IMG/VR virus record: IMGVR_UViG_3300029985_000017
Span: 99,230-163,229 of that record
Reading direction: 5' to 3' (one strand)
Source: a virus
Length of the DNA stretch: 64,000 nt
The position numbers and the translations under genes are program-made. Within the stretch, counting starts at the first letter, position 1. The number at the start of each line of letters is the position of its first letter. The notes under the pieces are model-generated. The model was not told where the DNA came from, ran no database searches, and was given only the letters and a program-made list of their open reading frames with translations. Shown one piece after another: positions 12,601-59,129 of this stretch.

Positions 12601-15132
12601 AAAATTCAACAGCTGTCCAACTTCATCAAAAGTAATGACTGTTATAGCACCACTAGTATTAATGGTATTGGTTTTAATGGCTAAGTATTCTTCTATAACA
12701 ACTGAAAAAGTAAGAGAATCTGTTTGAGCTTGTAGATAAATAGAAATGGCATCTAGAGTTTGTATGCCAGTAGGGACGTTAAATTTTTGAGGAGCATCAG
12801 CCATTCTAGCAACTATAAAACTCGCTTCTTTAATTACAACATCAGATTGTGGTGCAACAGCTGCGGCTTCTGCTGGAGTAACCAAAATATTTAGGGTATC
12901 TTTAGTTGTAGTGGTGGTAGTAATTGAATGAACTCTGCCCTCAAGTCTATTGGTAGCATTAAGTTCTGGAGACCATATAATTACATAGTCGCCTGGCAAA
13001 ATATTAGAAAAGGCTGAAACAGTGTTACATGCATAACTAACTAAGCTACCAGAAACGCTAACGGTTATAAAGCTACCAGGAGTCGCACCAGTAGGAATAA
13101 TAGCTACCGGTTCATCAATGGCTAACCAAACATATCCTTCTGATGGAAAATTGATAGATCCACCGCTAATCGCAGTACTAGTAATGGTTCCTTTTGTATT
13201 TTGAGTTCCGGCAGTTAGAGTGTCTCCGGCAACTAAAGGTACAGCAAGTTCAAATTGTGCAGTATTGCGATCTAGAGTGTAATCTGAGGTGAGGCCCTTA
13301 GAAGACAAACCTTCAGCTGATGTAAACATTCCTTTAGTTACTAAGGTAGATGATGAGCTTATTACTACTTGAGCACGAGTTTCTGCTCCTAAATTACTTG
13401 TAAGTTCTATCTGTGAACCTGAAATAGTGGCCGTTATGCCTGTAATTTTGTTATTAAATACTTCTACCCAAGATTGTAGGGAGTTTGTAGGACTTACAGT
13501 AGAATATAGGCCTGTAGCTAGAAAATCAGAATTTAGAATGGTATAAGTAATCGAATTCGTTCCATCAACTGAAATGATTAGTGTATCGCCATTAGCAATA
13601 CTGCTTGACCAATTGGCTTGTTGTGCTGAAAAAACAGAAGCTGTATCTCCATCTTCGCTTAGCAATTTACCGTCTTTGTAAAGTCTTAGGGTTTCATTAA
13701 GTGTAGTAGGGAATCCTAAATAATTATTGGCGTCTGTTAATGATGGAGAAGATGGCGTAGTTACTTGAATAGATTCATGAGTTTCTGCAATAGCGTTAAG
13801 TACCACATAGGTTCCGCCTCCAGAGGTTGAGGCTTGAAAATTTACTAAAGTGTCGGCATTAATACTTGCGCAAATTTCATAAGCTGTAGCTGCGCCTGGA
13901 GCTTGGAAATCAGAGTTTAGAAAAGCATGCTGGGTAGTAACACCGCCAACTGTAACGGCTAGTACATATCCACCCTGAATTGCGAATGGAGATGCGTTTG
14001 TTGATTGAACAAAAGCTTTAGAAATTGGAGCTTGAGTGCCTCCAGTTGCCAATTGAAAGTACTGCTCTCCACCAATAGCAGAATCTACGATATGCTCAAT
14101 AGCAACTCCTGAAGTTTTAGCTTCATATGGAGTGGATCCACCGGTAGAAATGTAAATAGTTGATGTGCCGTTTAAATTATTAACTAAAATGTCAGAAGAA
14201 ATAGTGGCAGCTTCATCAGTTGCTGTAGCTCCAATCAAAGAGTTTTCTAACGCTGTAGCCGTACCCAATCCAATAGAAGAGAGTTGGTTTTGAATTTGTG
14301 TTCTTAATTGATCGTCAGTAGTAGGATCTGTTCCTCCGCTAGTAGGCGAAGGATTTGTAACTGTAGCATTGGGAAAGGGGGAGCTAGCAAATTGTGTAAT
14401 AGCTCCAATGGGTATATTGCTAGCTGAGCCTGGCAAAAGAGCTGTAATAGGCACATTAGTTACAGTATTAGCACCGTCTAAAAGAACTCCTTGCTGGGTT
14501 ACCACGTATTGATTGTTAGGGGTTATTCCATTTGATGGGGAAAGTACGATTGTGTTTACAGGAACAATTCTATTTCCGCCTTGACTAAGGATAATAGACT
14601 CATTGATATTATGAAATTTAGTAGTAGCAGAAGTTAAATTGAACTGATAATAATTTCCAATTGAAACTATAGAGGAATATCCAATTGGACCCTCACTATT
14701 ATTGGTGCCCCTACCAAGATATATGTTTCCTGTAGCAGGAAATCCTATGTTAGAGCTAGCGTAAACTATAATAGAACCTGCATTAGTTGCATTTTGGCCG
14801 GGATAAACGGAGGTAGAAACAACTTGGAAAGAGGTATCGGTTACAGTTATAGAACCAGTACTAACAGCTGATTCTACAGGCGTAATCCCAAATTCTGCAG
14901 CGATTGCCTGCAAACTTGAGCCACTAGCGTATTGTAAACTTGAATTTAATAGTGTAGTAAATACATCCCCTGAAGCGCGGGCAATTGCTAAAGCTACAAC
15001 TTGAAAAAAACTTAAATTGGCAGAGCCCACAAATGGTGAAGAAATTCCAGTACTTGTGGCATAACTGGATAGCATGTCCGAAGTAATCTGGGAATAACTC
15101 TCTGGTTGCGGAACTGTTGGTAGTGTAGCCAT
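9646..15132 (-). CDS. Very large baseplate J-like wedge protein
   Basis: GGTDPTTDDQLRTQI J-family motif; J-like C-terminus VAGVVSV; 1828 aa. Confidence 0.75.
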   Translation of the reverse strand: MATLPTVPQPESYSQITSDMLSSYATSTGISSPFVGSANLSFFQVVALAIARASGDVFTTLLNSSLQYASGSSLQAIAAEFGITPVESAVSTGSITVTDTSFQVVSTSVYPGQNATNAGSIIVYASSNIGFPATGNIYLGRGTNNSEGPIGYSSIVSIGNYYQFNLTSATTKFHNINESIILSQGGNRIVPVNTIVLSPSNGITPNNQYVVTQQGVLLDGANTVTNVPITALLPGSASNIPIGAITQFASSPFPNATVTNPSPTSGGTDPTTDDQLRTQIQNQLSSIGLGTATALENSLIGATATDEAATISSDILVNNLNGTSTIYISTGGSTPYEAKTSGVAIEHIVDSAIGGEQYFQLATGGTQAPISKAFVQSTNASPFAIQGGYVLAVTVGGVTTQHAFLNSDFQAPGAATAYEICASINADTLVNFQASTSGGGTYVVLNAIAETHESIQVTTPSSPSLTDANNYLGFPTTLNETLRLYKDGKLLSEDGDTASVFSAQQANWSSSIANGDTLIISVDGTNSITYTILNSDFLATGLYSTVSPTNSLQSWVEVFNNKITGITATISGSQIELTSNLGAETRAQVVISSSSTLVTKGMFTSAEGLSSKGLTSDYTLDRNTAQFELAVPLVAGDTLTAGTQNTKGTITSTAISGGSINFPSEGYVWLAIDEPVAIIPTGATPGSFITVSVSGSLVSYACNTVSAFSNILPGDYVIIWSPELNATNRLEGRVHSITTTTTTKDTLNILVTPAEAAAVAPQSDVVIKEASFIVARMADAPQKFNVPTGIQTLDAISIYLQAQTDSLTFSVVIEEYLAIKTNTINTSGAITVITFDEVGQLLNFTAGQTNQSSYPILAHQDTASAYLPSFFHSTISSGTHAFPPDTFVSSFNSTISLVGREPDEIITFINPYGGIDDEQPANEVVQETTVAATVVGITQDPDVRRLRTNDRFFTSSPLSFGAKDTLVAIIDNNPVNNTFQVPLYRHALTNATYGVNSNDFNAYDTDLAPTGSFVTSFGSTFSFNNYKVLMQAKKTLSSTTSQSSILYRSVVWGSSGQQTIISYVYSPSASALNYSVTVGNTVNLTITIPPATTATTVAAYVNANLSSYISATVVNDGSGGTPGTGIITASTNTQLVDGVNWLLSSNISGSPQFVLKNPLALPSDVGYSFNNGEPLIFSPTTIDQVNKFINTQAVTGLSTASVINTANRDSELEISSETYGSAGYIEVVGGAANGYSFPVIDSALNINNQYAAISASTIASSNVISGQWFYLQAANVQQKQTELGDNTNVVFTPNSPSAGLSTVTLSNGLSTQRYFGTPRAISGLSSLTFRVEAQGELVCFSYVNSTSSPQYLTQSINFASTTGDTVSIGLVSETNDSIYTVLSGTTNFSGVPIGNLVTIMVTGSPANSGTFMVTGSTATTLQVTNVNATTVASFAVTAGSTFLASTGVQEGDSVIIGAPFSAPNQGTYRVIRTFNDSFWIKNTDYIEEEKTLTSSSLTFYEYEATIPGDVLVLSSTAFGAANAGSYTITQVPNQNQIVINGVLSTVYIFTVTAANATTGATYTNNGQLFTVSSTISGGTTLSTTGNGNPLSSGTLTLTSGIGDATITFSAYSTPSFNLNGLLSSIYVDEGVAYTGYKHVYLVGPQPGTTNLNEILFDTYQQYEKINQAAGVEVTALNKLNFPTTINEGLDGYKYNTGLIQEANRIIYGDPTDPLTFPGVAAAGSDIFVDVPLPLVVTLAIDVRLQTGAPFSSVAQQIQSNVAALVNSNPVGKSIAISSIVAVCTTVAGVVSVAISSPLYSPTHDLIAVQPNEQTYVLQPSNISVSLIS

Positions 15133-26845: not shown

Positions 26846-27880
26846 TTAAAATTCAAGGCTGTTGTCGTTTCGTACATAACCTTGTTTTGTCCTAGCGATA
26901 GCGTAAATCTTTTCTTCAAAACTATTGAAATCTTTCGAACCCAAAGCATTAATAGCATCTTTGATCAATTGGCCATCTTTAACCATCAAAGCCCTGCCCA
27001 AATTATCGGATTTAATCTTAGTTACTTCACCTTCAACTAACTTATTCCATACTAGATAAGTAAAAAGATATCCACTTGAAATGAATTTAGAAGCCCTATC
27101 GTTTAGAATAGCATTTGCTCTAGAACCTTTATTGGAATCTCCTTCTTTAATAACATATTTCAATACATCCAAGGCATAATTCATTGCTTCTACAAATTGT
27201 GCTTTTTTTGTATAACCCAACTTAAGAGTAAACTTACTATCGCCTGTGGGAATCTTGGAAAGTTGCTTCACTTTTTGTGCAATATTACCAGACAATACTT
27301 TTTCTACTGAAAAGTCATTATAATCATGAAAAGTCATACAATAAAGAATCGAAGCGATTTGCTTATATTGTTTAACAGTAATAAGTTTAACTCCAAAATA
27401 AAGGGAAGTATCAACAAGTCCAATACAATCCCTAATCAAACTTGCGAAAGCCAAGTCAGGATTGATTAGAAGATCCTTAATCTTAAGCCCAACAGCGCTG
27501 CCTTCAGCAAGATAAATAGAAAGAGCTTCTTGTGTTGGAAACACGTATAGAGTCGCATTGCAACTTCCATCAGTTCCAAGTCCTCCATCCCTTTTATGAA
27601 CCAAATTTAGAGCGGCCATACGATGGTGACCACCACGTCGTTCTAGTGTATATCCACCATTTCTTTTTACGGGTACAGCTAGAATAACACCAAAATGGTC
27701 TGGATTAAAGTTATCTGCATACGACTGTACTCTATTTTCATCAAGAGCCCTATTGTTATTATAGGCAACCATATCTTTTACTACAAATTCTGCATCCCAC
27801 AATTGGTCTAGGGTTGCGGTATAAGAAGTACCATTTCGGCCTACTTGTCCATTGCTTTTAAATCTTTTCAAGATATCCAT
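26846..27880 (-). CDS. ParB/Srx-like N-terminal domain protein
   Basis: NNRALDENRV...GGHHRMAAL; start at ATG 27880 after AAGGAG. Confidence 0.6.
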   Translation of the reverse strand: MDILKRFKSNGQVGRNGTSYTATLDQLWDAEFVVKDMVAYNNNRALDENRVQSYADNFNPDHFGVILAVPVKRNGGYTLERRGGHHRMAALNLVHKRDGGLGTDGSCNATLYVFPTQEALSIYLAEGSAVGLKIKDLLINPDLAFASLIRDCIGLVDTSLYFGVKLITVKQYKQIASILYCMTFHDYNDFSVEKVLSGNIAQKVKQLSKIPTGDSKFTLKLGYTKKAQFVEAMNYALDVLKYVIKEGDSNKGSRANAILNDRASKFISSGYLFTYLVWNKLVEGEVTKIKSDNLGRALMVKDGQLIKDAINALGSKDFNSFEEKIYAIARTKQGYVRNDNSLEF

Positions 27881-27881
27881 A

Positions 27882-28025
27882 TTATTCTCCTTGAGTCTCG
27901 GTCGTAGCAGTCTTAGGCTTATTCTTAGAGCCCTTTGGTCGTCCTCGGCCACGCTTTACAGCGGGAGCAGCATTAACAGTCGTTGAGGTCGTAGTGGTAA
28001 CAGAATCAGTATTAGTAGTAGTCAT
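27882..28025 (-). CDS. 47-aa AT-hook microprotein (absent from ORF track)
   Basis: AAGGAG RBS; MTTTNTDSVTTTTSTTVNAAPAVKRGRGRPKGSKNKPKTATTETQGE. Confidence 0.8.
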   Translation of the reverse strand: MTTTNTDSVTTTTSTTVNAAPAVKRGRGRPKGSKNKPKTATTETQGE

Positions 28026-28048
28026 ATTTATCTCCTTGTTTAATTAAA

Positions 28049-28077
28049 AGTCTAACCGGTTTATTTACAAAAGTCAA
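28049..28077 (-). promoter_or_regulatory. sigma70-type promoter
   Basis: TTGACT-N17-TAGACT. Confidence 0.75.
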
Positions 28078-28080
28078 GCT

Positions 28081-28266
28081 TTATTTTTGTAAATTCTTTA
28101 TTTTATTTCTTAAGGTCTCTGCTTGATTTTTAAAAAATTGATCAAGAGTAGAATCATCATTTTTGATGTTTCTAACTGTATATTTAATAAGAGTATTTAG
28201 GAATTCAATTTGAGGATTCATGGATTTTTTCTTTGTCTTAATTTTTTTAGTCTTCTTTTTGGCCAC
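28081..28266 (-). CDS. Small basic protein
   Basis: GTG start, Lys-rich. Confidence 0.5.
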   Translation of the reverse strand: MAKKKTKKIKTKKKSMNPQIEFLNTLIKYTVRNIKNDDSTLDQFFKNQAETLRNKIKNLQK

Positions 28267-28280
28267 ACATCACCGTTTCT

Positions 28281-28871
28281 TTAAAATGGAAATTTAATAC
28301 CTAAGCCCATGAAATCTTTGCCTTGGTTTGGCATTTCTAAACCAGCACTAGAAAAATGATTGTATGTAATTCCAATACTGTCGTGTTGTTTGTCCACAAT
28401 ACCAAAAAAGATGGTCTCATTGAACTGAAATGGACCTCCAAGAGCAGAATCTGGAGTTGATATTAGGGTAGGGCCACTAAAAATACTTGCTTGAACTACG
28501 TCATTTGTGACTTCAAAGCCCAATTGATACCCTGCAAATGTACTATTATGTCTACCATCACCCCTAGCATCTAACCATGCACCGCCGTTAAGTCTTTGCT
28601 TTAGTGTATACCAAAGATCCTCCTGAATACCCATTTCAAGCATTTTCACTTGAGAAATGCTATGTCCCTCAGTACTAAATACTCCCAATCCAGAATTAAT
28701 TAAAAACTTGTCATCTTCAGCTTTAGCATAATTAGTCGCAAATATAATTAAAGCAATTGCCAACCAACTCAATATAACTACTATCTTTATAAAATTATTC
28801 TCTGTTTTGTGTGGTTCATTTTTTACAACTCTTAAATTACTTCTGCGCTTCTTATAGCTTTTTGTAGTCAT
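28281..28871 (-). CDS. PagL-like outer-membrane beta-barrel (lipid A 3-O-deacylase family)
   Basis: Signal/TM segment; FQFNE...YNHFSSAGLEMPNQGKDF...FPF resembles HxSNAG..PNxG; terminal Phe. Confidence 0.7.
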   Translation of the reverse strand: MTTKSYKKRRSNLRVVKNEPHKTENNFIKIVVILSWLAIALIIFATNYAKAEDDKFLINSGLGVFSTEGHSISQVKMLEMGIQEDLWYTLKQRLNGGAWLDARGDGRHNSTFAGYQLGFEVTNDVVQASIFSGPTLISTPDSALGGPFQFNETIFFGIVDKQHDSIGITYNHFSSAGLEMPNQGKDFMGLGIKFPF

Positions 28872-29227
28872 TTGTTGCCTTTCTTCAAAAGACCATCTAA
28901 AATAAAAGATTTAAACAAAATCTTATCTATTCTCTTGGGCTGGCATCTTTCTTGCCATTCTACAAGTTGAAGTTTTTGAGACTTGCACATTACTTGAGCC
29001 TTGCAAACATGATAATTTGGCATAGAATCTGATTCAATCGTAATCTTATAACAATAGAATGAAGGAATTGGATTCCATATATTAATACCATACTTATCTT
29101 TAAGGCCAAAAAGAATTTGTTCTACAGGTCTTTGGCACACAAAATGCGTGGGATCTCCATAAAAAATATCGCCTTTCTTTGGTGGCTTAAAATAAAGGTG
29201 TAATTTGCGGAAAAAACGCTGCACCAT
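28868..29227 (-). CDS. Hypothetical protein
   Basis: In operon, ATGA overlap. Confidence 0.5.
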   Translation of the reverse strand: MVQRFFRKLHLYFKPPKKGDIFYGDPTHFVCQRPVEQILFGLKDKYGINIWNPIPSFYCYKITIESDSMPNYHVCKAQVMCKSQKLQLVEWQERCQPKRIDKILFKSFILDGLLKKGNK

Positions 29228-32598: not shown

Positions 32599-34220
32599 AG
32601 TCCACATACCCCGTTAATACATTCACGTTCTTGTTCTTCAAAGACTTTTCCTTCGTCTGCTAGCGCTTCGTCTAGACTAACTCTGGTAAGGGGTTGTCCA
32701 CCACGAGCACCGTCTGGATAAACCGTAAAGCCCCTCAAACGTTTGGCATACTTAAGCAATGTAGCAGCGTTCTTCTCATAATTGCCTTCATTGTTTGATT
32801 CAGATCCCCAACTATCCATATTACAGGTGCTAGAGATAGCCATATCAACATAATTCTGAACATCTGCTTGAAACTTAACTCGTTGTTTGAACGTTAAGTC
32901 ACCTGCATCTTTAATGTTTTCCACTTTAACGCCTTGTTCTAACAATCTCTTAACAGATCCATCTACTACATATTGATACATCCACTTACCATCTTTAAAG
33001 TATCGTCTTTTATAGGCTTTACAGAACAAAGGTTCGACACCAGTAGTACTTTCTGCAATTATGCCTATCGTTCCTGTGGGCGCGATGGCCCTTACACCTT
33101 TAGGTACAGATACTCCTAGCTGTTTGGCCCCAATAAAGGCAGCTGAATCGCTTTCTTGTTCATATACAGAAAGTAATTTATGAAGTTCTGGAGTTACTTC
33201 ATATGGTTGACCTTTAGACATCAACCATTCGTGAATACCACCTAAGCCCAATCCAATCCTATTATTCTTAGAGCCTACTTCTTTAATCTTTTGAGTAGGA
33301 ACATCGCTATAAATACTGCCACAAAGAAGAAAAAGGGTAGCATATTTAGTGGCTTCTTGTAAATCTTTTTTGTCTTTCATTCTATTAAGCCAAAGTGTTC
33401 CTAGGTTACATTTATCAGAATCGTCTTCACTTACCACTTCTGTACAAGCATTTCTTAGTGATTCAGCATCTTTACGAAAGTTAAAACTCATTCCAGGTTC
33501 TGCGGTAGAAAAAGCTTGTTTACAATTTTGTAGCCAAATACTTTTGGCTATTTCGTTTTTAGGATGTGATTCATTTTCAATGGCTATAAAAAATTCTGTA
33601 TCATAAATAATAGAAATATTAGTCAGTTCCATTGGAAGAGGAAAATTAAGATCGGCTAATTTTGTTGTCTTGAGTTGATCAGAATAATCCTTAAGAGTCA
33701 TAAAAGTTTTAATATCTGGGTGAGACCAATTAAGCCCTGCCCAAATAGCACTTCTTCGTTGTCCACCTTGCATGATATAGCGTCCTGATTCATTTACCAT
33801 TTTCATGAGAGCGATCGGACCTGTAGAAGTTCCGCCAGTCCTAGAAATCTTGGCGCCTTCATGTCTAAGTTTAGAATAGTCAACTCCAATTCCACCACCT
33901 GTCATCAAAGACGCGGTAATCTTGTGCATAGTATCTGCCCAAGACTCGCGGCTATCTTCAGCTCTAAAAAGAAAACAATTATTAACTTGATGGAATTCTC
34001 TACCAGCAGAATATAGATATCTACCGCCAGGAATAAACTTTCGTTCTAGTATAATATTGTAGATCTTTTCTTTAGTCTTAGTATCTAAAAGCTGAGAACA
34101 AACAGCTTCCGTGACACGCTTAGCTGTATGAGCCCAACTTTCTACTCCATCTTTAGAATATTTTTGAAGATAAATGTCATGAGAAAACTTAGATGAAAAA
34201 ACGTCAAACTGATTCTTCAC
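32595..34220 (-). CDS. nrdJ: Compact ribonucleotide reductase, probably class II (B12-dependent)
   Basis: PGGR, NNCF, QGGQRR, NACTE (radical Cys), APTGTI, GFTVYPDG, C-terminal CINGVC; no beta subunit in window. Confidence 0.85.
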   Translation of the reverse strand: MKNQFDVFSSKFSHDIYLQKYSKDGVESWAHTAKRVTEAVCSQLLDTKTKEKIYNIILERKFIPGGRYLYSAGREFHQVNNCFLFRAEDSRESWADTMHKITASLMTGGGIGVDYSKLRHEGAKISRTGGTSTGPIALMKMVNESGRYIMQGGQRRSAIWAGLNWSHPDIKTFMTLKDYSDQLKTTKLADLNFPLPMELTNISIIYDTEFFIAIENESHPKNEIAKSIWLQNCKQAFSTAEPGMSFNFRKDAESLRNACTEVVSEDDSDKCNLGTLWLNRMKDKKDLQEATKYATLFLLCGSIYSDVPTQKIKEVGSKNNRIGLGLGGIHEWLMSKGQPYEVTPELHKLLSVYEQESDSAAFIGAKQLGVSVPKGVRAIAPTGTIGIIAESTTGVEPLFCKAYKRRYFKDGKWMYQYVVDGSVKRLLEQGVKVENIKDAGDLTFKQRVKFQADVQNYVDMAISSTCNMDSWGSESNNEGNYEKNAATLLKYAKRLRGFTVYPDGARGGQPLTRVSLDEALADEGKVFEEQERECINGVCGL

Positions 34221-36890: not shown

Positions 36891-37129
36891 GAGAATTTTT
36901 TAGTATTGTGTCTACAGGCAGAACACCAATAAGCAGTTTGGATTTCATCGTTTTCCATCCAGTGGGCTCCATATTCGCTTTCTTGGCCGCAAGCACAAAG
37001 GTCATCAAGCATCTTAGAAAGCCCAATCATTGGTGCATTGGGGTCATAATTCTCAACTTTCATCTCTTCATATAGAGTATCAGCTAATTTCAGAAAAGCA
37101 TCCTCAGTCTTTTGAAACGGTACTGGCAT
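36887..37129 (-). CDS. Zn-finger hypothetical protein
   Basis: CACG...CSAC. Confidence 0.55.
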   Translation of the reverse strand: MPVPFQKTEDAFLKLADTLYEEMKVENYDPNAPMIGLSKMLDDLCACGQESEYGAHWMENDEIQTAYWCSACRHNTKKFS

Positions 37130-37358
37130 CTTCTTTTTCCTCTATTAATATATTAAAAAGCTGTTGATCTTTTTCTAATCTCTCAGCAAGCCATGCACAA
37201 GCACCCTCTAGGGAAGAGTAATGCTGGCTTTCAACTCCGACATCATAGCCGCCCTGAGCAGCAATAGTGCCATGACGTATAATAAACCAGGGGGATTTGG
37301 GTTTAGATGGATCGTAGGCTATTTGAGCAACTAGGTATGGTTTAGACTTTTTCTTCAT
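37104..37358 (-). CDS. Hypothetical protein
   Basis: In operon. Confidence 0.5.
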   Translation of the reverse strand: MKKKSKPYLVAQIAYDPSKPKSPWFIIRHGTIAAQGGYDVGVESQHYSSLEGACAWLAERLEKDQQLFNILIEEKEDASTVSKD

Positions 37359-52391: not shown

Positions 52392-52606
52392 GTTGGCGGG
52401 GCTTTCGCCGTGCTCGCGCTAGAGGTTCACCGGATGATCCCTCCCAATCTAGTAGCAAGCTAGATCTCCGCGCCTATGTGCTTCATGGTTTATGCACACA
52501 TACAAACCACTCTCAACTGCTTTTACCCTCGAATTACTGCTTTTACTCCCGTTTAAGGGCACCGCAGAGTACAGGGGTTATTGCAGCCCACACACCTACC
52601 GCCAAC
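52392..52606 (-). ncRNA. Putative structured RNA (215 nt)
   Basis: Perfect closing stem GUUGGCGG/CCGCCAAC; GGC-GAAA-GCC; AUCUAG/CUAGAU; TGATATAAA upstream. Confidence 0.65.
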
Positions 52607-52799
52607 GTATTGTTTATATCATAATTACGTTTAATCCAAGACCTCTCGGTACAAGTTAACTAGCTATCCGTCCAGGACAGCTTTTGTTCTCATTTTTAAG
52701 AATTAACTTTTTCAACTGTTTCTTCGGTTTTTTAACCTCAGAAACTGTGCCTCTCAAACGAACTCGATCGCCTAAATTGAATTGCGTCATGTTTACTCC

Positions 52800-55242: not shown

Positions 55243-55261
55243 AAAGTCTCCTTTAAAAAAT

Positions 55262-55453
55262 ACCCCGAATCTCGCATCGGGATAACCGCGCTTGTTGCTA
55301 CCTATTGGACTTGAGACGCCCTAGACCTTGGGTAGCTCAGGGATTGCGCATACGATTCCACGTTACGCTTTCGTGACCTCTCTAGGGCTACAACTCCACC
55401 GGAGAAGTAGCTTACCTGGGTGTTTTACAACCCATTTAAGGAATCGGGTCAGC
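55262..55453 (-). ncRNA. Structured leader or ncRNA upstream of gene 55242
   Basis: Begins after TTGACT-N17-TAAGGT (55488-55460); several stems; ends in CCCGA..UCGGG hairpin plus U-tract. Confidence 0.55.
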
Positions 55454-55846
55454 TATACAACCTTACCAAAGGATTTTAAAGAAGTCAAGAAAATAATAAA
55501 GTGTATCTTATAATGATCATAATACCCATTTTTGTATATTATACGATACACTTTGGCCAAAAATACCCTATTCTGATGGCGCAGCCCCAATAGACCTAAA
55601 ATATGTTTAAACACATTAGAAAGATATGTTTAAATATATTTGGCGGCGGTTTAATATTATTCCTATAGCACAACAATAGGTTGTGTATTGGGAGTTAAAA
55701 TAAACTAAGGATTGTCACTTTTGAGGGTTTATTGACGATCCTTAGGAATAAAAATGGGCAGGTCTTCACAAGGTGTCCTAAACACCGAGAATTTATCGGG
55801 ACCTGCTTAGCCCCTAAGCCTTTACACTTAGAAGTACCCTTAAAAA

Positions 55847-56026
55847 GTTGACGGGTGGGTCGCGACTCCCACAATGAGGCCCCTTGCAGTCAGGATTGCA
55901 CTCAGTTTTAGCCTGCTCTGCAAGATGCGTGTTCTAGTGGGCTGACCATTTACTTTCGTCGCATGTCGCAGTTACCGTCTACCGCAGCACTTGTAGACCC
56001 CACGCGTCTTCCACGCCTCCGTCAAC
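55847..56026 (-). ncRNA. tRNA-like RNA family, copy 1 (180 nt)
   Basis: GUUGACGG-AG-GCGUG-GAA..UAGAA-CACGC...GUGGG-AGUCGCGA-CCCAC-CCGUCAAC. Confidence 0.8.
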
Positions 56027-56049
56027 GTACCGTATATATCATAAAACTT

Positions 56050-56217
56050 GTTGACGGGCCGGTCGCGACACCGGCTTCGGGCTTAAATGTAACGATACTG
56101 GCCCATTTAAGGGTAGCGTACCCGACCACTCGTCTGATGTGCGTGTCTCTAGCGGTAGCCATCCGTTGTCATATGACCTCAACGACCCTCGCCGCAGCTT
56201 TCCACGCCTCCGTCAAC
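56050..56217 (-). ncRNA. tRNA-like RNA family, copy 2 (168 nt)
   Basis: GUUGACGG-AG-GCGUG-GAAAG..UAGAGA-CACGC...GCCGG-UGUCGCGA-CCGGC-CCGUCAAC; starts 6 nt after TTGACT-N17-TAGCCT. Confidence 0.8.
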
Positions 56218-56248
56218 TATTACAGGCTAACCTAAAGAACTGGGAAAG

Positions 56249-56593
56249 TCAAGAACTGTTTTTAGCTATTTCAATAAAAGTTTTTAAATTAATATTCGCT
56301 TGCTTGATTTGATTTTCTAAATATTCAATAAGAACATTAAAATCAGACTTCTTTGCCAATCTGACATTATCCGGATGTGTCCAGCCCTCATAATACATGA
56401 GGCCGTCTCGAGGGTCTCTTACAGCATAACAATAGTCCACTTCCAGTTCTTTGGCTTCTTTCTCAGAACACTCGAAAAAATGCAAGCCAGATATCAGGGG
56501 ACTATAATAACCGTATTTACCGTCTTCTTCTAATTGAACAGGATATTTATTATATTCAGTTATAATCCAATCGCCCTTTTTATATTTTTTCAT
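56249..56593 (-). CDS. Hypothetical protein (leaderless)
   Basis: ATG 6 nt after TTGACT-N17-TAAATT (56628-56600). Confidence 0.65.
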   Translation of the reverse strand: MKKYKKGDWIITEYNKYPVQLEEDGKYGYYSPLISGLHFFECSEKEAKELEVDYCYAVRDPRDGLMYYEGWTHPDNVRLAKKSDFNVLIEYLENQIKQANINLKTFIEIAKNSS

Positions 56594-56814
56594 TGAGTTA
56601 ATTTAACAAGGAATTTGGAGGAAGTCAAGAACTATTTTCCATTATCCGGTTGGCGAAGCTCGCTAGGTGTCCTAGAAGGCCTTCACGATCCCTAGGCCCT
56701 CAGTTGCCCTCGGGCTCCTATAAAGCCAGGTAAAGCGTAAAAGCTATTAATAGGCGGTAAGGGGCCAAGCCTTTATAAAAACGCGCTATAAGTCAACTGG
56801 GGGCGGTTTAAAGT

Positions 56815-56982
56815 GGAACTGGCAGGGTAGGGCGCGACTCCTACTCTGCGAATGCTCGCAGTCCACCATAACGTGTCTCTAGTGATCAGGATCGGTACCA
56901 AGCCGATTTAAGCAGCGCCCCTACCGTCTGCACCCTATAATCGAATATTAGATCCACAGCTTTCCACGTCGCCGCCAGTTCC
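56815..56982 (-). ncRNA. tRNA-like RNA family, copy 3 (168 nt)
   Basis: GGAACUGGCGG-CG-ACGUG-GAAAG..UAGAGA-CACGU...GUAGG-AGUCGCGC-CCUAC-CCUGCCAGUUCC. Confidence 0.75.
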
Positions 56983-57777
56983 TAAAGGGATATATCACGA
57001 CTCCAAAGGACCCTGGGTTCAGGGAGCCCTTTTAAGAGAGAATTTTTCGGAAATTTTTTAATGAAGTCATATAGTTAGGAGTGTTTAAAAATGGGGGTTT
57101 TGCGTAAAACTCTAAAAAAGACAAATATATGAAATTATTAAAGAAATGTGTATTTAATAGCTTATTGGGGGAGAGGCAGTTTATAGGGAAAAATTCTGGA
57201 AAAATTTTTTTAATCGTGATTGCACGTCTATATAGAATAGACTATAGAGTTGTAATCATTGGAAACCCCGAAAACACTATATTATCAATGACTTATCTCC
57301 ATGTCACCTATGACACACGTTGATTTCATTAGGGTTTATGCGCCTAGACTTTGGGCATAGACTGTTATTGACACACTTACACTATCCTGATGCTTGACAC
57401 AGCCTAACACCATTGACGAATGACCGCGCCGCTGTTAACAATTGACTTTATGGAATCGGAGACTAACTCCGACTCATTGATATCATTGACTTATATTGAT
57501 TTAACAAACTTGATTAAACATTTTGCTATTTTGTGCAGTGCTGTAACTCACATATAGACGACTTGACACACTTGACCGATCGACCATGACCATGCCGCCA
57601 TTGACCTATAGGACGCACGAATGCCTGGCTCCCGGTGGGTGCCAGGCTTGACTCAGGGTATATAATTTTGTGGTATATAACTTGCATTTTGAATGCTATT
57701 AGGTGGGTCAATGACGACTCACTATAGACTTACTTTAGAATGCAAGATACACTACATAGTAAAGATTAGGCGACTAG

Positions 57778-57880
57778 TGACATTCTATGACATAGCCATG
57801 GTGACAATATACGTCAAAGTGACAATATTTGGTACATTAGCCCTATACGATTCAATGACTTACATTGGCATTCCATATGC
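57778..57880 (+). promoter_or_regulatory. sigma54-type promoter with three upstream TGAC-N7-GTCA-like boxes
   Basis: Boxes at 57778/57802/57820; TGGCATTCCATATGCA (GG 57867, GC 57879). Confidence 0.7.
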
Positions 57881-57893
57881 ATTACTTATAACC

Positions 57894-58295
57894 ATGATTA
57901 GTTATATTAACCGTATTATTTTAACCCAAGCTTCTAAACTCAAGTATACGGTAGCCGATCACGCGCCGGGTACTGAAAAAGGGTTATTCAATCAAGCTAG
58001 TTTAGTTATATGGTCTGGCGCTTCTGACGATACCATATTTGACGATTGTAGGGTTAACTGGGCATTCCGGGCATTGCACGATTCATTGCATTTAAAAACG
58101 GGTTTAGGTTTTAGTATTGCAGAAGAGATTTATTTAGGTAGGTTACAGGCTAATCAGTATTCAGGTATATTAGCTGATTTAGTTTATAGCGAGGTAGCGG
58201 AACAAGCTGAATACTATAGAATTAATGGTGTATTTGTACCTAATCAAAAAACCTTTGCTATTGACTCTCTTAAATCGAAAGGATTGTTAAAATGA
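57894..58295 (+). CDS. Hypothetical protein
   Basis: Start moved to MISYINR just after the sigma54 site; ATGA overlap with next gene. Confidence 0.55.
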   Translation: MISYINRIILTQASKLKYTVADHAPGTEKGLFNQASLVIWSGASDDTIFDDCRVNWAFRALHDSLHLKTGLGFSIAEEIYLGRLQANQYSGILADLVYSEVAEQAEYYRINGVFVPNQKTFAIDSLKSKGLLK

Positions 58296-58741
58296 TTAAA
58301 TATATACTAATTCTATTTATATCTCAGTTAGCCTATAGCGGCGATTTTAACACGATTCAAGGGTTAGCTCATTCTAATGGTTTTAACCCGTCTAATAGGG
58401 TTGTCAAGGCTATATACCATGCGGCGCGGCTATACCATATCCCTGTAAAGGAATTGACTGCTATAGCTATCCTCGAAACGGGTATAGGCTTCAATGCCAA
58501 AGTTAGGCATAACTCCAATGGTACACTAGATATAGGTTTATTTCAGATTAACACTGTAAACCAGTCTAGTTGCAAGGAATTCAATTTGACTTCAATTGAA
58601 GGAAATGCGTTATGCGCGGCGAAGCTATTGCATAGGATAGCCCATAGGCATTCCGACTATTTAGGCCGTTATCACTCTAAAACACCTAGTCATAAAATCA
58701 AATATATCCGCGCTATTAAACATATCTTGGCCATTGAGTGA
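58292..58741 (+). CDS. Secreted lytic transglycosylase (IagB/EtgA-like SLT)
   Basis: Signal peptide; AIAILETG, NSNGTLDIGLFQINT, GRYHS. Confidence 0.88.
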   Translation: MIKYILILFISQLAYSGDFNTIQGLAHSNGFNPSNRVVKAIYHAARLYHIPVKELTAIAILETGIGFNAKVRHNSNGTLDIGLFQINTVNQSSCKEFNLTSIEGNALCAAKLLHRIAHRHSDYLGRYHSKTPSHKIKYIRAIKHILAIE

Positions 58742-58839
58742 CAATTATTGTCCCGATTAGGTGACAATTTTTGTTATTGGGACAATTATTGTCCCGATTA
58801 GGATTGAAATGATTAGATTATTTCTGGCATTAGGGTTGC
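58739..58839 (+). promoter_or_regulatory. sigma54-type promoter with three upstream boxes
   Basis: Boxes at 58739/58762/58780; TGGCATTAGGGTTGCA (GG 58826, GC 58838). Confidence 0.8.
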
Positions 58840-58869
58840 AATAGATAGTGTTATAGGAGATTTATTAAC

Positions 58870-58995
58870 ATGGCTGAAATTGTTCAAGTTAAAAACGGTT
58901 TTCAAGTGATTTATAAAGGCAGAATTAGTGTTAAATTTGATAGCATTCTTGATGCTATTCGGTATTCCTATAAAATGAAACGATTATACCTATAA
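58870..58995 (+). CDS. 41-aa microprotein (absent from ORF track)
   Basis: AGGAGA RBS; MAEIVQVKNGFQVIYKGR... Confidence 0.55.
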   Translation: MAEIVQVKNGFQVIYKGRISVKFDSILDAIRYSYKMKRLYL

Positions 58996-59009
58996 TGGGG
59001 GAGTGAATT

Positions 59010-59129
59010 ATGCGAGTGTATTTCAAAGAGTCTAATAGTGATAAGTTATCTTTTACTGAAGTCTATACCCAAACTATGTATTTAATTGGAGTATTGACGA
59101 TTTTACTTGCAACGTGGTTTTATAACTAA
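59010..59129 (+). CDS. 39-aa membrane microprotein (absent from ORF track)
   Basis: GGGAG RBS; C-terminal hydrophobic helix. Confidence 0.5.
   Translation: MRVYFKESNSDKLSFTEVYTQTMYLIGVLTILLATWFYN

Follow-up and report, generated by a model that had tools for sequence, protein, structure and literature searches.

The stretch analysed here, hereafter the window, comprises the last 64 kb (64,000 nucleotides) of the 163,229-base-pair (bp) virus record IMGVR_UViG_3300029985_000017, whose completeness rating is 99%. Three RNA genes of 168–180 nucleotides (nt), named c1, c2 and c3, lie on its minus strand within a 2.4-kb stretch that lacks long open reading frames (ORFs). To the left of this stretch run about 35 kb of minus-strand genes and to the right lies a plus-strand block (coordinates of all features are collected in Table 1). 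The copies have a GC content of 55–58%, against 38% for the genome, and the whole 163-kb genome contains only these three. A single tRNA, Ile(UAU), is encoded by the phage about 150 kb away from them, and no tRNA gene adjoins c1, c2 or c3. In what follows, G000 to G005 designate phage genomes, G000 being that of the window, and L numbers designate loci. The window's phage belongs to a clade of uncultured phages of 114–177 kb that show 40–55% amino acid identity in core genes and have in common a portal protein and a GroEL-like chaperonin. Its identical sequence recurs in several peat metagenome runs; DNA contigs from four peat runs did not differ from the window and therefore offered no microdiversity with which to test compensatory change. 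Comparison of the region with GenBank phages by BLAST gave no match.

The original prediction described the three RNAs as variants of one scaffold, and every feature that it listed was found on the minus strand. Each copy is closed by an acceptor-like stem (P1), which in c1 is GUUGACGG/CCGUCAAC, and is joined by a 2-nt linker (AG in c1, CG in c3) to a D-like stem (P2) within whose loop an arm (P3) is inserted. A further 5-bp hairpin, P5, directly abuts the 3' strand of P1, and its loop in the window copies is W-GUCGCG-M; the hairpin reads GUGGG-AGUCGCGA-CCCAC in c1, GCCGG-UGUCGCGA-CCGGC in c2 and GUAGG-AGUCGCGC-CCUAC in c3. Stems P1 and P2 are the same in c1 and c2, whereas c3 has a P1 of different sequence and a P2, ACGUG/CACGU, that represents a compensatory change with respect to the GCGUG/CACGC of the other two. 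The internal loop of c1 diverges (GAAGAC.. // UAGAA), and its P1 is followed by a run of five U. An unconstrained minimum free energy (MFE) fold of c2 yields P1, P2/P3 and P5. The 3' motif GTCGCGMCCNNCCC occurs three times in the window, against an expectation of 0.00, and GRCGTGGAAR also three times, against 0.21. Similarity from copy to copy is limited to the ends and the core motifs, and the interiors gave no BLAST match to one another, so that the earlier description of compensatory stems enclosing unrelated interiors was correct. Also as anticipated, ARAGORN called no tRNA in the window and Rfam 15 returned no match to the copies, either at the gathering score or at E<=10; both programs were equally silent on minimal members of 121 nt from elsewhere.

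Viral and metagenome contigs were scanned for relatives with patterns that fixed GTGGAAAG and AGAGACAC. These scans gave 44 unique full-length members of 119–302 nt, to which members in cultured Pseudomonas phages are added. Their habitats include peat, soil, wastewater, groundwater and marine sites, and the phages that carry them extend in size from 36 kb (temperate Pseudomonas phages) to 177 kb (peat phages), with three copies in G000 and two each in G003, G004 and G005. The scans also gave chance matches in coding sequence that lacked the flanking pairings; the sole match in genome contigs (Pacificibacter) was of this kind, being located in coding sequence and lacking a P2 pairing, and was discarded. 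The true family is wider than the set found by pattern, as c1 and the member in phage phi297 illustrate.

Across the family the fold is a four-way junction in which P1, usually of 7–8 bp (range 6–20), stacks on P5 to give an acceptor/T-like stack of 12–13 bp in total. The linker between P1 and P2 measures 2 nt in all members and is CG in 39 of the 44. Stem P2 has 5 bp (GCGUG/CACGC) and leads, where a tRNA has its D-loop, to a purine-rich loop of almost constant sequence, GAAAGC // UAGAGA, which gives the family string CG-GC-GUG-GAAAGC[P3]UAGAGA-CAC-GC; the base following P2 is an A in 30/44 members. Arm P3 is optional and is inserted where G18G19 would stand, and unconserved hairpins occupy the places of the anticodon and variable arms. 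When tallied without any requirement for a loop motif, a 5-bp hairpin abutting P1 was present in at least 38 of the 44 members, and the loops of these hairpins all fit N-(G/U)(U/C)(A/C/U)GC(G/A)-N, with GUCGCG and GUAGCG dominating. Unconstrained MFE folds of the minimal members give the same architecture. About half of the members begin with UG and finish with CA. Identity of the internal loop with a K-turn or a sarcin-ricin motif was considered and rejected upon inspection by eye, as strand order and letters misfit.

The interiors had been regarded as variable cargo domains. Their variation is evident, but a cargo role is doubtful because P3, which reaches up to about 80 nt, is reduced to a 22-nt hairpin in one member of G003 (G003b) and is absent from others. 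We infer that the helices count only as helices and that the inserts are tolerated rather than required. In G003, a 42-nt piece of the variable region is repeated almost identically 22 nt downstream of the gene (L027), which hints that insert modules enter and leave the scaffold. In L025 and L044, the P3 arm terminates in a canonical tRNA T-arm hairpin (GGGUUCGAUUCC and UGGGUUCGACUCCCA, respectively).

Covariation was assessed with a MAFFT alignment (A3) of 27 members scored against the structure derived from c2. The proportion of paired cells was 97.0%, compared with 70.9% (standard deviation 1.3) in shuffled alignments and with 28–44% when the partner was slid by 1–3 columns. Double-compensatory cells numbered 139 versus 39.2 in the shuffles, and the covariation score was 0.653 versus 0.164. 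Changes on both sides of a pair were observed for all seven P1 pairs, four of the five P5 pairs and two of the three pairs at the base of P3, while the inner three pairs of P2 (GUG/CAC) were invariant. In well-aligned rows the strand of the genes holds eight G.U pairs against about one A.C, and the internal loop is purine-rich on that strand. The claim of a genuine RNA family in which the scaffold is constant and the inserts are unrelated is thus upheld by covariation across the aligned members, and these sequences very probably constitute a real, selected, tRNA-derived RNA family. The opposite view would take them for selfish or decaying DNA, that is, for pseudogenes of tRNAs or for small mobile elements whose termini are inverted, with no RNA function in either case. 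The UG...CA ends of about half of the members would agree with it, as would the 42-nt insert piece duplicated in G003 and the variable position of the RNA gene among related genomes of the G000 clade. This view is barely credible, because every helix shows compensatory changes, G.U pairs are confined to one strand and the loops persist in phages that are unrelated, all of which denotes selection on an RNA fold; moreover, neither target-site duplications nor transposase genes came to light.

The likeness of the D-arm to that of tRNA-Leu, noted originally from the wording of the sequence, holds when the comparison is made with tRNA-Leu(UAG) of the related phage G002, which reads UG-GUG-GAAUGGCAGA-CAC. 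Two members in Pseudomonas phages lack the P3 arm and have plain 9-nt loops, GAAAGCAGA (PotUPM1) and GAAAGCGCA (vB_PaeS-D14H), that differ from the D-loop of this tRNA-Leu by one deletion and one substitution, and P3 can therefore be regarded as an insertion at the position of G18G19. Other traits in common with class II tRNA-Leu (RF00005) are a closing stem of 7–8 bp with a 5-bp helix stacked on it, a 2-nt linker to the D stem, a GUG/CAC D-stem whose loop ends are GAA...AGA, as in the G002 tRNA, and a single purine after the D-like stem. By contrast, the anticodon arm, the T-loop, G18G19, U8 and an encoded CCA are absent from the family, in keeping with the earlier statement that it has neither a T-loop nor a standard anticodon arm. 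The loop at the T-loop position is never canonical, being N-GU(C/A)GCG-N in at least 38 of the 44 members. The bases after P1 are unconserved and U-rich (4.2 T on average among the first eight), and no discriminator-CCA is encoded. Because the GG of the D-loop and the T-loop are both replaced, the tRNA elbow that had been proposed is not present in canonical form. The Rfam tRNA model RF00005 gave no match at E<=10 for the window copies or for a 121-nt minimal member, and a scan for intermediates combining the family core with a canonical T-arm (core followed by GGTTCRA) produced only two chance matches, both in coding sequence. The family retains a class II tRNA outline, with both partners of the elbow replaced, the anticodon arm lost and no encoded CCA.

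These traits bear on whether the RNAs could be chargeable, non-decoding tRNA-like carriers which, after CCA addition, would be aminoacylated by an anticodon-blind synthetase of the leucyl-tRNA synthetase (LeuRS) type and would donate or sequester an amino acid off the ribosome. LeuRS does not read the anticodon, and both the remnant of a leucine-type D-arm and the 12–13-bp acceptor/T-like stack would suit such a substrate. However, P1 is followed by neither a conserved discriminator base nor an encoded CCA, and two elements that shape the tertiary core of tRNA-Leu, the T-loop and the GG of the D-loop, have been replaced, making a carrier extremely unlikely.

Literature searches found no paper describing the family. 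The assertion that it was an unrecognised one stands in this respect, but must be qualified by the existence of described RNAs that come close, namely the tRNA-like stable RNAs of phages T5 and T4. RNA1 and RNA2 of T5, annotated as 'tRNA-like stable RNA with unknown functions' (AY543070.1, 30501-30644 and 32959-33083), resemble the family in being phage-encoded and non-decoding, in having a closing stem of acceptor type on whose 3' strand a hairpin is stacked, and in containing big unrelated inserts; RNA1 has in addition a leucine-type D-arm and RNA2 a CG linker. They are located amid tRNA genes, as are the family members G003b, L131, L132 and L054 and unlike the window copies, which have promoter-like elements of their own. 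The T5 RNAs also differ in retaining a canonical D-loop (GGAAUUGGUAGAC) and T-arm (GGUUCAACUCC, GGUUCGAAUCC), whereas in the family G18G19 gives way to an arm or AG, and the T-loop to a GU(C/A)GCG loop. The species 1 and 2 RNAs of T4 (rnaC and rnaD; AF158101, 70908-71171, L099) are stable RNAs of 119–139 nt from the end of a tRNA cluster, and their roles are still unknown (PMC3014915). In rnaD, compared across T-even phages (with L108-L110), the 5' hairpin and the 3' end are constant and the centre is replaced, and the conserved hairpin CCGG-GUCGCUA-CCGG resembles the P5 loop of the family. By contrast, the T4 RNAs lack the GUGGAAAGC..AGAGACAC core, and rnaC, which is almost invariant across T-even phages, has a canonical T-arm. 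A link to rnaC through a supposed GUAGCG hexaloop was dropped because these words form a stem and not a loop, as evidenced by covariation in phage Q7622.

The YrlA-type Y RNAs (RF02553) are also modular non-coding RNAs with a tRNA-like part, and they occur in phages too. They differ in that their ends form the Ro-binding stem and their T- and D-loops are canonical; the family, for its part, gives no Rfam match. The TROVE domain was absent from G000, G001, G002 and G004 and was present in G003 only, far from its copies of the RNA. G003 is a 144-kb unrelated phage with a tmRNA (transfer-messenger RNA) and a Ro60 (TROVE) gene (L083, L089). The phage tRNA-like stable RNAs exemplified by T5 RNA1/RNA2 and T4 species 1/2 are the group to which the family is best assigned, as a divergent branch. 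RNAs of this group have been known for about fifty years, and a function is known for none of them (PMC3014915). The family itself is uncatalogued.

Each 5' end had been placed 6 nt after a -10-like hexamer, which holds only loosely. The elements of c1 and c3 are of the extended -10 type and fit TGnTATAT(A/C), and that of c2 has the form TTGACT-17-TAGCCT; none of the three was listed by a simple sigma-70 scanner run on the window. Across the family, sigma-70-like promoters with a score of at least 9/12 end 4–8 nt before P1 in 8/27 members, versus 1/27 when the other strand is scored. Among them are TTGATA-16-TATAAT-6 nt (L033), TTGACA-17-TAGTAT (L012) and TTGACT-16-TATAGT, and the signals of the window copies are weaker than those of the best members. 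Some members are promoterless and lie within tRNA operons: G003b follows a tRNA-Lys inside a cluster of 24 tRNAs, L132 ends 5 nt before a tRNA-Gln, L131 ends 14 nt before a tRNA-Met, and L054 precedes tRNAs. In the G003 cluster, which has the one family member inside, several hairpins of canonical T-arm type are interspersed that are not called as tRNAs by ARAGORN.

Table 1. Positions of the RNA genes, their promoter-like elements and other features mentioned in the text.
Feature	Sequence	Position	Strand	Remarks
c1, RNA gene, 180 nt	window	55847..56026	minus	8-bp P1; P2 GCGUG/CACGC; P5 GUGGG/CCCAC; divergent internal loop
c2, RNA gene, 168 nt	window	56050..56217	minus	canonical family core
c3, RNA gene, 168 nt	window	56815..56982	minus	P1 8-11 bp, one C bulged
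Extended -10-like element TGATATATA	window	56033..56041	minus	6 nt upstream of c1; weak, no -35 box
Promoter-like TTGACT-17-TAGCCT	window	56224..56252	minus	ends 6 nt upstream of c2; 8/12 matches
Extended -10-like element TGATATATC	window	56989..56997	minus	6 nt upstream of c3; weak
L141, family member	phi297, NC_016762.1	about 12972-13162	minus	
L142, family member	AUS531phi			
L140, family member	vB_PaeS-D14H	about 37064-37236		
L139, family member	PotUPM1	33923-34123		
Terminator-like hairpin with T-run	window	55284-55261	minus	
GC-rich stretch without ORF, about 215 nt	window	52392-52621	minus	
Structured-looking non-coding stretches	window	55255-55488, 55725-55846, 56630-56814		between or after copies
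613-amino-acid protein; GroEL-like chaperonin	G000	27385-29226 and 57304-59070		outside the window
Repeated 42-nt piece (L027)	G003	136946-136987 and 137053-137094		
tmRNA, Ro60 (TROVE) gene and 24-tRNA cluster (L083, L089)	G003	121.4-131.5 kb and 1-3.1 kb		
tRNA-like RNA (L067)	G001	about 41.10-41.26 kb	minus	
Proteo-phage-1 RNA (RF03044)	L123	10209-10282		45 bits

No neighbouring gene conserved across lineages was found among the members compared. Genes downstream of the RNA are co-directional with it in 24/37 cases, and the copy in G002 is a stand-alone unit that has its own terminator and convergent neighbours, both of which argue against a purely cis role. Such a role would make the RNA a leader or punctuation element at the head of a long transcription unit, be it a site where RNase P/E processing releases and stabilises the mRNA or tRNAs downstream or a put-like element for read-through of terminators. 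Several arrangements are in line with this: the window copies head the approximately 35 kb of minus-strand genes, with a terminator-like hairpin between them and the first gene; a Shine-Dalgarno (SD) sequence and ATG occur within 20–40 nt downstream in L014, L022 and L033; in phi297 an intrinsic terminator lies 40 nt downstream of the RNA, where the early operon starts; and tRNAs come directly after some members. A cis element is nevertheless unlikely in view of the limited co-directionality and of the G002 copy. Furthermore, what c2 precedes is c1 and not a gene, and two invariant loops together with a tRNA-like junction exceed the needs of a processing site.

A different proposal is that the RNA is a subunit of a particle formed with a dedicated protein of the phage or the host, to which the invariant loops would bind while the variable arms would serve as specificity or adaptor modules in the manner of guide or Y RNAs. 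In its favour are the presence of sequence-invariant loops between freely covarying helices and of several divergent copies in one genome. Some candidate partners were found beside the RNA. In phi297 and AUS531phi, a CsrA-family gene of 123 amino acids ('bci', RsmM type; PF02599, E 1e-24) is directly upstream, and a gene annotated 'bci' is likewise located just upstream in D14H; an RsmM-type CsrA-family protein is noted in PMC7366521. The sole invariant GGA of the family is at the junction between P2 and its loop. The phi297 RNA has six GGA in about 190 nt, which is near the prediction from composition. In the phi297 group the particle might take the form of a CsrA-type sponge; sequestering RNAs of the CsrB and RsmY/Z type expose many GGA motifs in their hairpin loops. 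No CsrA-family gene is present in PotUPM1 or in G000-G004, and this neighbour is a lead for one lineage and not a rule of the family. In L014/L024, L053 and L056, a protein of 301 amino acids and a DnaB-like helicase are encoded directly downstream. The 301-amino-acid protein was rejected as the family's partner, since the synteny is internal to one clade and the homologue in G000 does not adjoin the RNA; its AlphaFold model (predicted local distance difference test, pLDDT, 69) gave no PDB match at E<=0.001. The proposal of a particle is distinctly unlikely, given that no protein family adjoins the RNA across lineages, that G000-G004 encode no CsrA, RtcB or CCA-adding enzyme and TROVE/Ro60 occurs in G003 only, and that the variable arms are nearly absent from some members. 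Complementarity of the inserts to the phage's own genome was limited to matches of 10–15 nt, at chance level (E>=1.2), and the guide role suggested originally is accordingly unsupported.

We favour, with a probability of roughly 0.5, the interpretation that c1, c2 and c3 are independent genes of a widespread family of phage small RNAs that has a remodelled class II (leucine-type) tRNA as its framework and acts in trans. Action in trans is suggested by the absence of a conserved neighbour, the shifting positions of the gene and the stand-alone unit of G002. For lack of an anticodon arm the RNAs would not decode, and for lack of a discriminator-CCA and a canonical elbow they are probably not aminoacylated. 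The two invariant loops, situated where the D- and T-loops of a tRNA meet, probably contact each other in place of the usual tertiary interaction or together bind a protein. The RNAs would accumulate as stable tRNA-shaped molecules, produced from promoters of their own in the window's phage and by processing out of tRNA operons in other phages, and would act on a host factor that recognises tRNAs, the most plausible mode being that of a decoy or sponge for a processing enzyme or for a defence nuclease that targets tRNAs. The decoy mechanism is itself doubtful; the idea comes solely from the literature, where phage tRNAs are suggested to serve as decoys or as supplements against defences that cleave tRNAs, such as Septu, which cuts the variable loop of class II tRNA-Tyr (PMC13096335). 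In a more elaborate form, which we consider very unlikely, the GU(C/A)GCG hexaloop would dock on the GAAAGC//AGAGA loop as a second, independently evolved 'elbow' and give an L-shaped RNA, common to unrelated phages, with which these would neutralise a conserved host factor that recognises the class II tRNA shape (e.g. a Septu- or retron-PtuAB-type nuclease) as an anti-defence decoy.

A number of observations weigh against the trans-acting tRNA-like RNA that we favour. The phage is uncultured and no RNA run was found to contain the stretch. At several loci an ORF bearing an SD sequence, or a tRNA, starts 5–40 nt downstream, which fits a cis role too. The family shows no link to any defence system. 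The T-loop, G18G19, U8 and NCCA are all missing, and many tRNA-binding proteins would therefore not recognise the RNA. Finally, c1 deviates from the 'invariant' loop, and the invariance of the loop letters is in part a matter of ascertainment, because GTGGAAAG and AGAGACAC were fixed in the scans.

The family indicates that tRNA-like stable RNAs are strongly selected in very different phages and habitats, and that both hallmark loops of a tRNA can be lost while its outline persists. In phi297 and PotUPM1 the RNA is overlain by an annotated coding sequence for a 'hypothetical protein'; a covariance model of the family would correct mis-annotated ORFs of this sort and fill a gap in Rfam. Members in cultured temperate phages of Pseudomonas aeruginosa (phi297, AUS531phi) make the role of such RNAs testable by ordinary experiments. 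In both of these phages the RNA is followed by an intrinsic terminator and then by an operon with a PD-(D/E)XK nuclease.

Other structured elements were observed in the vicinity of family members. About 2.4 kb from the member in G001 lies a tRNA-like RNA (L067) that ARAGORN does not call; its closing stem has 9 bp, and two canonical T-arm hairpins follow one another in it. A Proteo-phage-1 RNA lies about 285 nt upstream of the family member in the L123 contig. In the window, three more structured-looking non-coding stretches are located between or after the copies, and one of them includes the terminator-like hairpin, immediately ahead of the gene with which the long leftward block begins. The ORF of 114 amino acids between c2 and c3 had no relatives among viral contigs and belongs to no Pfam or PHROG family. 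Outside the window, G000 encodes a 613-amino-acid protein with ice-binding-like and chitobiase C-terminal domains, and its GroEL-like chaperonin. The GC-rich stretch of about 215 nt on the minus strand of the window lacks the core motifs of the family, yet its closing stem, GUUGGCGG/CCGCCAAC, equals P1 of c1 and c2 except for one compensatory pair. Its upstream context, TGATATA...TAC, is as at the copies, and a GGC-GAAA-GCC hairpin is stacked before the 3' strand. This element may be a sister RNA that has only the outer frame in common with the family.

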